Source: Mobula hypostoma (taxonomy: Eukaryota). Taken from it: 64,000 nucleotides of DNA. The DNA lies in NCBI RefSeq assembly GCF_963921235.1, contig NC_086108.1, positions 30,444,001 to 30,508,000 of the forward strand. The letters are read 5' to 3'. This document shows positions 4,051-62,165 of the stretch, one piece after another. The translations under genes and the position numbers were made by a program. A model generated the notes under the pieces. That model had not been told where the DNA came from. It saw only the letters and a program-made list of their open reading frames with translations, and searched no databases. The number at the start of each line of letters is the position of its first letter. Within the stretch, counting starts at the first letter, position 1.

Positions 4051-4626
4051 GATCAGCTGTTGCCCATTTCTGAGGTTACTGAAAACAAACACAAATGGAT
4101 CAGTCTAGATCCAGTGGTAGAATTAAGGCAGGATTCTAAGACAACAACTGCAGAATCTTTGCTAAGAGCAAATGACACAGCCAGTGCTCCCCATCACCTG
4201 TGCTTTCTGAGGTGCCTCCTAGTGACAACACAGTACCCAAACCAAGATCTATACATACACCACCCACTAAATGCTTCCTTATGTCAAACCTGAGGGCACC
4301 CGCACTGGCTTCAGCAACTTGGCATGAAGACTCTGGATGTAACTCCTTCCCCTTGAAGTTCTTGTGGTCACAACCCAATGTGTCAGTGCATCCCTTAGCC
4401 TCAGAACGTTTCAGTCCTGGCCAACTCCCTATATTTCTGGAGGACGCTTTGGTAACTCCCACATAGCTGGTATTTTTCCAGCAGCTGTTGAGGTTTGTTT
4501 AAGTGTGTGTGGTTTACCTCTTACCAACTGATTCTTCCCACTGCCCACTTCTTCCGTGGCTTCACTTCCTCCTAACAAGGACAGAGTTAATTCCTTCAGT
4601 GAATCCCCATTCTCATGTAGAACTTG

Positions 4627-5747
4627 AGGAAAAAATTCTGGAGGAACACAGCAGGCCAGGCAGCATGTATGGAAAAGAGTAAACAGTTGATGTTTCTGGC
4701 CAATACTCTTCATCAGGACTGGAAAGGAATGGGAGTGGTCAGAGTAAGGAGGAGGGGATTGGGGGGAGGAAGTACAAGGTAGTAGGTGATAGGTGAAACC
4801 GGGAGAGGGGGAGGGGTGAAGTAAAGAGCTGGGAAGTTAATTGGTGAAAGAGGTAAAGGGCTGGAAAAGGGGGAATCTGATAGGAGAGGACAAAAGACCT
4901 TGGAAGAAAATGAAGGAGGAGGAGCACCAGAAAGAGGTGATAGTCAGGCAAGGAGATAAGATGAGAGAAGGAAACAGGAATGGGAAATGATGGAGGAGAT
5001 GGTGGGGGGAGTGGTAATTAATGGAAGTTAAAGAAATTGATACTCATGCTCTCAGGTTAGAGGCTACTCAGATGTAATATAAGGTTTTGCTCCTCCAGCC
5101 TGAGTGTGGCCTCATCATGGCAGTAGAGGAGGCCATGGACTGAATGTCAGATTGGGAATGAGAAGTAGAATTGAAATGGGTGGCTGCCGGGAGATCCTGC
5201 TTTCTGTGGCGGATGGAACAAAGGATCTCAGTGAGGTAGCCTCCCAATCCACGTTGGGTCTCACCAATACACAGGAAGCAACATCGAGAACACTGGATAC
5301 AGTAGATGACCCCAACAGATTCACAGGTAAATTGTTGCCTCACCCGGAAGGACTGTTTGAGGCCTTGAATGGTAGTGAGGGAGGAGGTGTAGGGACAGGT
5401 GTAGCACTTGTTCCGCTTGCAATGGTAAGTACAAGGAGGGTATTCAGTGGGGAGGGACGAGTGGACAATGGAGTCGAGTAAGGAGCGATCCCTGATGAAA
5501 GTGGAAAGTGGGGAAGGGGGCGTGGGTGGAAGGAAAGATGTGCATGGTGGTGAGATGCTGTTGGCGATGACGGAAGTTATAGAGAGTTATGTACTGGACG
5601 TAGAGGCCAGAAGGGTAGAAGGACAAGAGGAACCCTATGTCTGGTGTGGGGACAGGAGGATGGAGTCAGGGCAAATGTGCATGAAATGGAAGAAATGCGA
5701 GTGAGGTCAGCATTGATAGTGGAGGAAAGGAAGTCCCTTTGAGTTCA
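4627..5747 (-). mobile_element. Penelope-like element 3' fragment (GIY-YIG endonuclease remnant and pseudo-LTR)
   Basis: FTCESVGVIYCIQCSRC..CIGETQR..HFNSTSHS; 12-bp TSD ATGTAGAACTTG at 4615-4626 and 5748-5759. Confidence 0.85.
4684..4721 (-). ncRNA. Degenerate minimal hammerhead ribozyme motif in the Penelope pseudo-LTR
   Basis: Minus strand CAGTC-CTGATGA-agagtattggcca-GAAA-CA-TC-AACTG; core boxes present, helices weakened. Confidence 0.55.
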
Positions 5748-57800: not shown

Positions 57801-59780
57801 CAGACTCTACCTGCTAAGCCTAAGGGATCCAGTTGCCAGATCTCCACTAAAGGAAAGACTCCTAAACACAGACCTTCAGAGCATAGTCCTGGGGGTTTAA
57901 GGGGCATTTGTTATGCTTCGTTGCCATTGTCTGAAAATGTGGACAAGGATTTGGACTTTAATTCGGCCATTGTTTCAACGAAGGAGTCCAGTGAACCCAT
58001 GGAGGAGACTCTGAGGTCTGTTGAATGACCCCTGCCACCCAAGGAGCCTCGGAAGTCACCCTTGAAGAAAGATTTGGAGTTAATTGTAACACCCAAACTG
58101 TACGAAATCCCTTCTGTCAACAAAGATTTGAAAGACGTCTTCAGCAAGGGAAAGGCCTCAACTCTTTTACTGCACCAACTCAACAGCTGTGCAATAGATC
58201 TGCTGCCTGATACTTGTCCTCTGCAGGGCCAATTGTACCCCTTGTCAGTCCCAGAGAGAAGTGCATTGATTACAGAGGGTTGAATCGCATAACGGCCAAG
58301 AATCGTTAGCTCCTTCTGCTCATGAACACTGTCTTTGAGATTCTTCAAGGGGCAAGTGTATACTCAGAGCTAAACAGGCGGAGTGCATACAATCTGATCC
58401 ACATAAATGAGGGCAACGTGTGTGAAATTGCATTCAACATGCCAACAGGGCACTATGGGTCCCTGGTCATGCACTTCAGCTGTGCAAATGCTCCAGCAGT
58501 TTTCCAGGCCTTTTTATACAATGTGCTTGGGAATGCTCTCCACAAGTATGTCGTCATCTACATGAATGACATACATATCTTCTCAAAGTCCATGGAGGAG
58601 CATGTCGCTCACATCAGGGTCATTTTAATAGGCATTTAGACCATGGACTTTACGTCAAGCTGGAGAAATCCGAATTTCACGTGACCACCATTTCATTTTT
58701 GGGTTTTATCATCTCTAGTGGCAATCTCAAGATGGATCCTACTAACAGACAGGCAGTCAGAGATTGGTCACAATCATCCAAGGTGAAACAAGTCCAATGA
58801 TACTTGAGATATGTCAACTTTTCCTGGAAGTTCTTCAAGAACTTCAGCTCAGTGGTAGCTCCACTGACAGCTCTGTGTAAGGAACCCATGGGCTCTTTTT
58901 CTGGATTACTGAAGCAGAGCAGCTTTTGCAGGGCTCAAACAGCTGTTCAGGACAGCTCCTTCTTTGGTTTCACCTAATCTGGACCTTCCCTTCATCATGG
59001 GGGTGGATACCTCAGATATCGGAGTGGGTGCATTGTTGTCTCGACGGACACCTTCAGACAGTAAACGGCACCCACGTGCATTCTTCTCCAGGTGGCTATT
59101 GCTGGCAGAAGGGAACTATGACATTGGGAACGGAGAGCTGCTCACAGTTAAGTTGGCTCTGGAGGAATGGTGTCACTGACTTGAGGGAGCCAGAAACCCT
59201 TTTATCGTTTGGATAGACCACAGAACCTGGCTTGTATTCAGGAGGCTAAGAGATTGAATTCCAGGCAGGCCAGACGGTCTCTTTCCTTTAGATGCTTTAA
59301 TTTCATCCTGACCTCTCGACCAGTACCAAAAAACCAGAAACCAGATGTCTTGTCCAAACAACAGGAATCTACTACTATTTGAACCCAAGCCAAGGTAATA
59401 GCGCCAATTCATTGGGGAATCAGTGCTTTTCTTCCCAAGGCCCAGGCACAAGGGGAATTTCTTAAAAACACTTTTTCGGGTCAGCAGCTCATCCAGTTCC
59501 GTCCAGTCTCAGGTTCTTCAATGGGGACATGCATTGAGAATGACCACTCACCCACTGATTGTCAGAACCCTTGAGTTCATCAAGAGCAGATATTGGTGGC
59601 CTGGAATGGCAAGTGAGGTCCAACAATATGTGCAGGCATGTGAGGTGTATGCCCGGAACAAGGAGCCCTGTACCCAACCTCAAGGACTCTTTCATCCACT
59701 GCCTGTTTCAGACAGACCATGGCTGCACATCTCCATGTACTTTGTCATGGGTCTTCCACATTCCAGGGTCACGCTTGTAT
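54809..59780 (+). mobile_element. Degenerate Ty3/Gypsy (Sushi/Tf2-like): 5' LTR 54809-55119, gag, pol, truncated in integrase
   Basis: TGTTATGA...GTCACA LTR followed by PBS-like GTACGATTTAGCCA; RQDRRSEADYAIEFWTLAEESGWN, AYNLIHINEG, NYDIGNGELL, YWWPGM..PWLHISMYFV. Confidence 0.85.
56296..57385. mobile_element. Non-autonomous hAT element (1090 bp) nested in the Gypsy
   Basis: TIRs TAGTGGTCGCCAGCC / GGTTGGCGACCACTA; 8-bp TSD TTCTAGGC at 56288-56295 and 57386-57393. Confidence 0.92.
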
Positions 59781-59966
59781 GAGGTGTCAGGGAGAGGTAA
59801 CACCTCTGGTGGGGGAACATGTCGCGTCCTTTTCAAGGCGGTTAGCCCACCTTTGGTAGCCACCTGGCACTCAGCTCTCACCTGCGGCTCCCCGTAGCTG
59901 TTTGCATGCGACAGCGGCCACATCCTGGGCAACAGCTTCTACATGCCGGCTAAACCAGGTGAGGGT
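59781..59966 (+). ncRNA. Candidate HDV-like self-cleaving ribozyme
   Basis: P1 GAGGTGT/ACATCCT, P2 GCTCTCACCTG/CAGGTGAGGGT, P3 GGC/GCC, P1.1 CC/GG, P4 GCA..TGC, J4/2 GGCTAA. Confidence 0.6.
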
Positions 59967-60075
59967 AGCCGACGGGTCTCAAACCCTCGGTGAGATAGGG
60001 AGTTGTCTATCCCAGCATGTGAAGACAGACTCCGGCAGACTGAGTGGACGAGACCAATGGAAGGTCCAACGGTCC
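59781..60075 (+). mobile_element. RTE (BovB-like) 5' UTR fragment
   Basis: GC-rich structured leader recognised as an RTE-type 5' end from memory; begins where Gypsy homology stops. Confidence 0.55.
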
Positions 60076-60089
60076 CAACAGTGGCTGGG

Positions 60090-62165
60090 ATGTGGATGAC
60101 AGATTACAACAGGAATAAGAAAAGGCATGTCAAAAGGGCAAGGTTATGATAGTCATAAGTGATTTCAACATGCAGATTGATTGGGAAGATCAGGTTGGAA
60201 ATGGATCTCAAGAAATCATGACAGGGCCAAGGAGACAGCAGATGAACTAAATGAGTATTTTGCATCAGTCTTCACTGTGGAAGACACAAGCAGTGTGCCA
60301 GGTGTTGAAAAGTGTGGGGGCAGAGAAGAGAGTACAGTTACTATTACAAAGGAGAAGGTGCTCAAAAAGCTGACAGACCTAAGGGTACATAAGTCACTCA
60401 GACCAGATGAATTGCATCCGAGGGTTCTGAAAGAAGTAGCAGTAGAGAGGACTGGAAAATTGAAAATGTCACTCCACTCTTTAAAAAAGGAGGAAGGCAG
60501 CATAAAGGAAATTATACATCAGTTAGCCTGACCTCGGTGGTTGGGAAGCTGTTGGAGTCAATTTTTAAGAATGAGGTTATGGAGTACTTGCAGACACAGG
60601 ACAAGATAGGACAATACTAGTATGGTTTACTTAAGGGAAAATCTTGTCTAGTGAACCTGTTGGAATTTTTTGAGGAGATTACAAGTAGGATAGGTAAAGG
60701 AGATGTAGTAGATGCCATATATTTGGACTTTCGGAAGGCCTTCGACAAGGTGTCATAGATGAGGCTGCTCACCAAGTTAAGAGCCTATGGTGTTACAAGA
60801 AAGTTACTGGCATGTTAGAGCATTGGCTAATTGGTAGGAGGCAATGAGTGGGAAGAAAGGGATCCTTTACTGACTGGCTGCCAATGACTAGTGGTTTTCC
60901 GCAGGGGTTGTTGTTGGGACTGCTTCCTTTTTTTCTGTATATCAATGATTTGGATGATGGAATAGCTGGCTTTGTAGCCAAGTTTGCAGATGATATGAAG
61001 TTTGATGGAGGATTAGGTAGTGTTGAGGAAACAGGTAGACTGTAGAAAGTCTTGGACAGATTAGGAGAATGGGTGAGAGAGTGGTAAATGAAATACAATG
61101 TTGGAAAATGCATGGTTATGCACTTTGGTAGTAGTAATAAATATGCAGACTATTTTATAAACAGGGAGAAAATCAAAAACGTGGTGATGCAAAGGGACTT
61201 GGAAAGCCTTATGCAGAACATCCTAAACTTTAACTTGCAGGCTGAGTCACTGGTGAGGAAGGCAAAGGCAATGTTGGCATTCATTTCAGGAAGACTAGAA
61301 TGAAAGAGCAGGGATGTAATGCTGAGGCTTTAAAAGGCACTGGTGAGGACTCATGTTGAGTATTGTGAACATCTTAGAAAGTATGAGCTGGCAATGGTTC
61401 ACAATGATGATTCTGGGAAAGCAAGAGTTATCACATGAGGAATGTTTGATGACTTTAGGTCTGTACTCGCTGGAATTCAGAAGGATGAGGAGGGATCTCA
61501 TTGAAAGCTTTCGAATGTTGAAAGGCCGAGACAGAGTAGGTGTGGGAAGGGTATTTACCATGGTGGGGGAGACTAGGACAAGAAGGCACAGCCTCAGGGT
61601 AGAGGAGTGTCCATTTAAAACAGATGCTGAGAAATTTCTTTCACCAGGGAGTGGTGAATTTGTGGAATTTATTACCATAGGCAGCTGTGGAGGCCAGTTC
61701 GATGGGTGTATTTAAGGCAGAGCTTGATGGATTCTTTTTTTTAATATAAGTTTTATCAAATTTTCAAAAAGAATACATGAAAAGATAAAATCTACCCACC
61801 ACCCCTCCCCTTAACCCTCCCCCCCCCATATATAGTCCTACCTAAAAAGAAAGAAAGAGAAAAAAACAGAGCCGCCTGGGTATTGGAAGGTTTCCACATG
61901 CTCCATGGGATTCAAAATAAATTTGGTATAATTATTCGTTACTTTCCCCAAGTAACCAAAATCTTTATTGGAGCACCTAAATATGCCATCTTATCTTCTG
62001 TAAATAAAGCTTGATGGATTCTTGATTGGACGTGGCATCATAGGTTACAGGGAGAAGGTCAGGAAGTGGAGGTGAGGAGGGGAAAAAGGATCAACTATGA
62101 TTGAATGGTAGAGCAGACTGAATGGGCCAAATAGTCCAATTCTGCTCCTATGTCTTATAGTCTTA
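60090..62165 (+). mobile_element. Old CR1 LINE fragment
   Basis: LNEYFASVFT, SGFPQG..KFADD, LGLYSLEFRR; CR1 3' tail. Confidence 0.85.
61737..62007 (-). mobile_element. Short poly(A) retroposon, probably an L1 3'-type fragment, nested in the CR1
   Basis: Poly(T) at left end, G-rich tract on minus, 16-bp TSD AGCTTGATGGATTCTT at 61721-61736 and 62008-62023. Confidence 0.75.

Follow-up and report, generated by a model that had tools for sequence, protein, structure and literature searches.

Self-cleavage by HDV-like ribozymes gives the RNAs of R2, L1Tc, and RTE retrotransposons a defined 5′ end (PMC6765202, PMC5786205), and RTEs headed by such ribozymes, along with two-ended derivatives of them, are already known. 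Here, we describe a repeat family, family A, that shares with the ribozymes of RTE, R2, R4, and Ingi/L1Tc elements a fold marking the element 5′ end and the conserved P3, L3, and P1.1 (PMC5786205, PMC6765202, PMC3774820), and with R2 the duplication of P1 strands (PMC3774820). It differs from them, as they are described in the available text, in L3, which has 7-8 nt in those ribozymes and 26-29 nt in family A and the lineages that share its head; 7-8 nt is also the length given as normal for L3 in HDV-like ribozymes generally (bioRxiv 10.1101/2022.09.22.508989).

With mosquito drz-Agam-2-1 (Webb et al. 2016, PMC4908430), family A has in common a nested double pseudoknot, a 12-bp P2, a large J1/2 closed by P1.2, and a (here predicted) cut at the first P1 base; the available text of that study mentions neither an L3 hairpin nor a downstream knot. 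Activity was measured for drz-Agam-2-1, whereas family A is known here from its sequence and predicted fold. The J1/2 domain of drz-Agam-2-1 speeds cleavage almost a thousandfold, and tertiary stabilization by a peripheral domain had, according to the same text, not been suggested for the HDV-like family before, the P1.2 pinch aside (PMC4908430). Bipartite non-autonomous RTEs and R2 SIDEs (Kojima 2018, PMC5786205; Eickbush 2012, PMC3414825) join, like family A, a ribozyme-bearing LINE 5′ end to a short LINE 3′ end, are non-coding, and are flanked by target-site duplications; the available text of these papers does not describe the internal ribozyme architecture of such a family. Two further systems resemble it in part. 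In L1Tc, too, an HDV-like ribozyme interacts with the sequence that follows it directly on the 3′ side (PMC4035085), but there the downstream region probably refolds the core, whereas the family A strand is predicted to pair with an added loop only, leaving the core helices intact. CPEB3 likewise has a palindromic, pairing-competent stretch tied to L3 (bioRxiv 10.1101/2022.09.22.508989), but its 7-nt L3 pairs between molecules at the expense of P1.1, whereas in family A it is an added hairpin that holds the palindrome, and the palindrome varies among lineages. Our literature search returned no report of a hairpin insert in L3 or of a third knot, and the figures or supplements of Ruminski 2011 and Webb 2009 may show such a variant.

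The window, that is, the whole stretch of 64,000 nucleotides of Mobula hypostoma contig NC_086108.1 analyzed here, contains one piece of a family A element. The reading that we favor, with moderate confidence, is that this piece is a decayed copy of a two-ended RTE derivative whose family carries an HDV-like 5′ end with a hairpin in L3, a predicted cut at its first G, and a third knot formed with a downstream strand. The features of the window copy, with pairings as predicted, are as follows.

59776..60074, plus strand: 5′ half of a family A element, a bipartite non-autonomous RTE derivative (blastn against an intact copy: 91%, element positions 6-303)
59776..59778, plus strand: leftover of the true family P1 5′ strand, its last 3 nt
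59780..59873, plus strand: structured J1/2 domain, P1.2-like, which includes the P1 strand of the first-pass annotation; 59780-91 is predicted to pair with 59863-73, closing the domain
59874..59885, plus strand: P2 5′ strand (in the family, P2 has 12 bp and a single bulge)
59886..59896, plus strand: P3 5′ strand GGC and the canonical part of L3, UCCCCGUA, with C59890 and C59891 of P1.1
59897..59915, plus strand: hairpin inserted on the 3′ side of L3, with a stem of 5-6 bp and a 7-nt loop (59903-09)
59904..59909, plus strand: loop strand of the predicted third pseudoknot
59917..59928, plus strand: P3 3′ strand, P1 3′ strand, and the GG of P1.1
59933..59948, plus strand: P4 (59933-38/59943-48), 6 bp in the family, with 2 mismatches in the window copy
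59949..59953, plus strand: J4/2 GCUAA with the candidate catalytic C59950
59954..59966, plus strand: P2 3′ strand
59968..60013, plus strand: two small predicted hairpins (59968-91 and 59998-60013; RNAfold per lineage), differing in sequence among lineages
60015..60024, plus strand: conserved strand GCAUGUGAAG, of which 60015-20 are complementary to the L3 hairpin loop

A genome search (3.5 Gb) with 59770-60075 returned 2,797 first-look candidates, of which 40 were scored; the best 30 loci align as a non-coding repeat of ~560 nt with a short (AAC)n tail. Thirty family A copies picked by pattern lie a median of 4.4% from their consensus. The family opens with a tandem GGGGTGT-AT-GGGGTGT, the first unit of which is the element start and would fall at 59772-78. 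Of 58 loci examined, 43 had a tail, and 15 of these were flanked by target-site duplications no shorter than 10 nt; 13 of the 15 duplications end 0-1 nt before the G of the first unit, in a search that extended 6 nt past that G and so left ends at the second unit outside its reach. At least six of the first seven letters are kept in register in 17 of the 30 pattern-picked copies. Family D differs in this respect: five of its nine aligned copies begin with a single unit and two with two (one is ambiguous and one truncated), so that either register can mark a start.

Family A positions 3-430 match the 5′ untranslated region (UTR) of the family C LINE at 75%, and positions 232-505 match the LINE of family F, a young family, at 76%. 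Of the last 28 nt, 23 agree with the F tail immediately past the open reading frame (ORF), a weak hit (E = 0.089) in the right place, and (AAC)n follows this match in both families. On these matches, family A is a bipartite non-autonomous RTE layout, a known kind, and its head and tail may come from different RTE lineages. The "RTE-like element" of the first-pass annotation is RTE-related, as a non-coding two-ended derivative and not a full RTE. Contigs from four organisms and four studies cover the element; all 24 of the 24 runs found are contigs, which show presence only. Two complementarities were observed beside these matches: a perfect hairpin stands where the two halves of family A join (tail region of L035), and in family F the end of the 5′ UTR (L230:1074-1095) is complementary to the 3′ UTR (4620-4650). 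Together, they may mark the site of an internal deletion that yields two-ended derivatives.

The same head was found in four families of the genome, the non-coding A and B and the LINEs C and D, and in three of 26 metagenome contigs of other origin (L184, L185, and L189). In families C and D and in the three contigs it precedes frames for an APE endonuclease and a reverse transcriptase (RT); C copy L119 has pieces of both, and F copy L230 has a single ORF of 1,129 amino acids with PF03372 and PF00078. The partners C, D, and F have a single ORF of ~1,100 amino acids, with the endonuclease before the RT, in an element of 4-4.4 kb. From this architecture, we take them to belong to the RTE clade. 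Protein relatives numbered 1,441 at E ≤ 1e-50. A tree of the endonuclease (16 rows) places the hairpin-bearing LINEs in one clade (98/97), and a tree of the UTR beyond the conserved strand joins F to A (100/99), apart from C. The ribozyme descriptor, run over 26 metagenome and 24 genome_contigs loci, gave three hairpin-type matches and one clean short-L3 match; a further five loci gave poor, probably chance matches, and most of the remaining loci lack a 5′ UTR. DNA-pattern scans of genome_contigs and viral_contigs gave 0 matches, and protein scans gave none in viral_contigs or phages.

Covariation was assessed with one copy from each of seven lineages (A, B, C, D, L184, L185, and L189). In the core helices 96.4% of cells are paired and four pairs change on both sides, three of them among the six pairs of P4, which is 100% paired, and one in P2 (93.8% of cells paired). 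None of 500 shuffles reached the core covariation score, and slid controls were 27-50% paired; mean column identity of the seven is 84%. Related sequences can beat shuffles, and the counts are not independent since the lineages are related. P1 of the family consensus has 7/7 pairs in A, B, C, L184, and L185, 6/7 in D, and is weak in L189. P3 is paired in 21 of 21 cells. P1.1, in which UCC of L3 meets the GG after P1, is paired in 13 of 14 cells, with no variation to support the pairing. J4/2 is present in all parsed lineages (as GCCAA in family C), and the long stem closing J1/2 is predicted in A, B, C, L184, L185, and L189.

The first-pass annotation had proposed, from the letters of the window, an HDV-like fold at the element's 5′ end, and at the family level, where P2 and P4 covary, the proposal holds. 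P2 (59874-84/59955-66) and P3 GGC/GCC (59886-88/59917-19) lie where it had put them, and P1.1 (C59890-C59891/G59927-G59928), the inserted hairpin (59897-59901/59911-15, 5/5 pairs), and J4/2 GCUAA were all recovered, with C59950 at the catalytic position, where 58 of 59 copies of family A have a C. Covariation, proposed there as a check, was found in P2 and P4, which change on both sides, but not in the L3 hairpin stem. The fold and its L3 hairpin are real, but they are a property of the family more than of the window copy.

Within the window, a double-pseudoknot descriptor (L3 of 7-45 nt) matched once over the two strands, at the site near 59781; it was composed post hoc with the site already known, and it also matched in 4 of 100 dinucleotide shuffles. 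Plain folding energy of the site, in a model without pseudoknots, was not significant (z = −0.87). The HDV-type models of Rfam matched neither the window nor an intact copy, nor the canonical short-L3 relatives L219 and L246.

In the hairpin lineages L3 is composed of the canonical 7 nt and an insert of 19-22 nt, which is missing (0 nt) from the short-L3 relatives; it thus exceeds the 7-8 nt that are normal in HDV-like ribozymes. The hairpin stem is paired in 34 of 35 cells over the seven lineages, with two one-sided changes and zero two-sided ones, and the loop differs in both length and sequence. A first impression of a two-sided change in the stem disappeared at the consensus level, where family C has U-G. 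Family E of the same genome, L246, and L248 (parsed with a looser pattern than the other loci) share the scaffold and have a 7-nt L3 with different letters in P1 and P3, the latter being GCC/GGC or ACC/GGU. The shared scaffold identifies the insert as sequence added to L3, on its 3′ side. Canonical short-L3 folds lie at L219:960-1020 and in L181 and L216-L218 (all family E), at L246:4275-4360, and at about 3870-3935 of L248. The P1 strand of family E is a (GT)n repeat, and L246 and L248 are contaminant contigs in genome_contigs.

The last six letters of the hairpin loop are complementary to a strand ~50 nt past P2, which is conserved while the sequence flanking it diverges; the two small hairpins stand between this strand and the ribozyme. 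In the seven-lineage alignment the loop-strand register is the best of 236 gap-free registers, with 42 of 42 cells paired, the next best having 36 (the loop with itself) and 34; when single copies are aligned, 2 of the 42 cells are unpaired. Family C has C-G in place of the U-A of the others (of 39 copies, 35 have the loop C and 31 the strand G), and family D changes G-U to G-C in 6 of 6 copies, at a position that shows three pair types overall (G-U, A-U, and G-C). The strand was not found in three family E copies or in L246, all with a short L3. Together, these observations make it likely that the loop pairs with the downstream strand, as a third knot, a partner that the first-pass annotation had not noticed.

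The same two parts occur in family F, where, in all 15 copies, an unrelated 6-bp stem carries the loop AGCACGC and a strand GCGUGUG lies ~50 nt beyond it, about half the family A spacing. As F groups with A and not with C, loop and strand have switched jointly at least twice. The ribozyme descriptor found no match upstream of the F loop in the 15 copies, many of which share less than 300 nt there, and a far-upstream ribozyme may since have been lost from the family. Some F copies (L210:395-754 in G000:C50, common to L211, L260, and L264) start with a GC-rich piece whose translation gives a domain of the glyoxalase superfamily (PF13669, E = 1e-11), which we take to resemble methylmalonyl-CoA epimerase; L212, L214, L221, and L225 have a different GC-rich head. 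These heads look like captured fragments of host genes, new 5′ ends replacing the ribozyme.

In the mechanism that we propose, host transcription would read through into an intact copy, and the family fold would cut before the first G by way of the equivalent of C59950, freeing element RNA whose 5′ end is defined. The structured J1/2 would pinch P1 and P2, by analogy with what was measured for drz-Agam-2-1, and an RTE protein recognizing the short 3′ tail, for which family F is the best candidate, would mobilize the RNA in trans. The third knot would tie the 3′ flank back to L3. Most likely it acts as a cis-acting scaffold that shields the uncapped 5′ region or binds the RTE protein, with L3 as its mount, because the non-coding families A and B and the ribozyme-free F keep the knot; it may also tune cleavage.

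Alternatively, the main role of the knot could be catalytic, that of a strut or switch, with the docked strand speeding cleavage or shutting it off once the downstream 55 nt are transcribed. This would suit the placement of the hairpin in L3, the loop forming the active site (PMC4908430), and the lack of the strand in short-L3 relatives, and it has a parallel in the L1Tc ribozyme, described as attenuated, probably through refolding, by its downstream region (PMC4035085). We nevertheless hold it to be unlikely as the main role, since loop and strand are retained in family F, in which no ribozyme core was detected, and this indicates that the pairing has a role needing no catalysis; scaffold and catalytic roles can coexist.

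Beyond the scaffold reading, we suggest tentatively, and would not be surprised to be wrong, that an RTE sub-lineage took one half of an independent RNA module and grafted it onto its ribozyme's catalytic loop, giving a triple-pseudoknot ribozyme with a downstream strand docked on the active-site loop. As the loop-strand module stands alone in ribozyme-free relatives, such a graft would couple self-cleavage physically to a retrotransposition signal, and the HDV family would gain its first known peripheral contact mediated by a loop. L3 being part of the HDV active site, a natural and widely amplified hairpin variant would redefine where the fold tolerates additions, and standard descriptors would miss it. 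Through the third knot it can be tested directly whether HDV-like ribozymes, like hammerheads, make use of peripheral loop contacts, and the loop-strand pair suggests that the 5′ UTRs of RTEs hold a conserved cis-signal. One genome supplies the natural controls: hairpin and ribozyme together (A-D), a ribozyme with no hairpin (E), and the loop-strand pair with no ribozyme (F).

Less probable again is that the hairpin is a passenger tolerated by an HDV-like ribozyme that is otherwise ordinary, with loop and strand conserved separately and matching by chance or through CpG drift. The shuffle control for the hairpin and third knot in single copies was not beaten (109 of 500 reached the score), the lineages are few and related, and the only two-sided change, that of family C, involves CpG-type transitions at both letters. 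Such drift fits poorly, however, with a register that is the best of all those compared, with three pair types at one position, and with a match that F keeps on another stem and with roughly half the spacing.

The window copy itself is probably inactive, an ordinary decayed repeat. Its 5′ end is clipped by 4 nt and ~260 nt are absent at its 3′ end; the second piece of the element, its 3′ half, was not found within the 64-kb window. The likely cut-site G of the family would fall at 59772, where flank sequence stands instead, and four of the seven bases of the true P1 strand are lost, leaving three mismatches and no P1 of 6-7 bp with a G at the cut site. The first-pass annotation had itself cautioned that this strand might be gone, and rightly so. 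The P1 3′ strand carries two C-to-T changes relative to the family, T59885C removes the P2 pair adjoining P3, and P4 folds at −1.0 kcal/mol vs −7.1 kcal/mol in the family. With P1 clipped and P4 broken, the copy is probably dead; of 59 family A copies, 11 have every core helix intact together with the C at the catalytic position, and it is not among them.

In the first-pass annotation the copy had been given a P1 5′ strand GAGGTGT at 59781-87, with the cut-site G59781 as element boundary, and P4 had been drawn as GCA..TGC. None of these assignments survived comparison with the family: GAGGTGT is the second unit of GGGGTGT-AT-GGGGTGT, with 59863-73 as its predicted partner, and the boundary is therefore not at G59781; the family starts 9 nt upstream, at the first unit, and its P4 is the 6-bp helix 59933-38/59943-48. 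That the window copy is nonetheless active and cuts at G59781 through GAGGUGU/ACAUCCU strikes us as very improbable. Six of the seven pairs can form, with G-U at position 1, R2 is described as able to use both of its duplicated P1 strands (PMC3774820), and family D often starts at a single unit. Yet the duplex would have −3.6 vs −11.8 kcal/mol, and freeing the strand would cost ~9 kcal/mol of the J1/2 fold (−38.3 to −29.0 kcal/mol). Also against it are the P4 mismatches, the lost P2 pair, and the fact that the copy reaches 5 nt upstream of G59781.

Kissing dimers between element RNAs driven by the palindromic loop GCAUGC, which have a precedent in the CPEB3 L3 loop in crystals (bioRxiv 10.1101/2022.09.22.508989) and would form a loop-loop duplex of −8.0 kcal/mol in five of seven lineages, are the least probable reading of all and were rejected, because in family C and L185 the loop is no longer palindromic (−0.5 and −3.4 kcal/mol) but still pairs with the strand (−7.7 and −6.3 kcal/mol), and the F loop is likewise non-palindromic.

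The surroundings of the copy are broken repeats as well. It interrupts, in the same orientation, a broken pol region of LTR-retrotransposon type (57900-59775; RT, RNase H, and integrase zinc-finger matches at 58310-59779), and a broken RT-encoding LINE fragment, presumably CR1-type, follows directly after the 5′ half (60076-62160). Among the loci collected, 24 in prokaryote genome bins (L236-L259) encode endonuclease-RT retrotransposon proteins and are probably animal contamination. A further RTE lineage, in L186:1-130 and upstream of the ORF in L195, has at its 5′ end a conserved hairpin-GG-short stem in which the descriptor parsed no HDV-like fold, and L229 carries ~12 tandem copies of a 43-nt unit inside an RTE 5′ UTR. 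Upstream of its ORF, L239 has the same bulged P2, with a perfect 19-bp inverted repeat in place of the P3/P1′ region; this RTE head would be either a rearranged copy or another variant.
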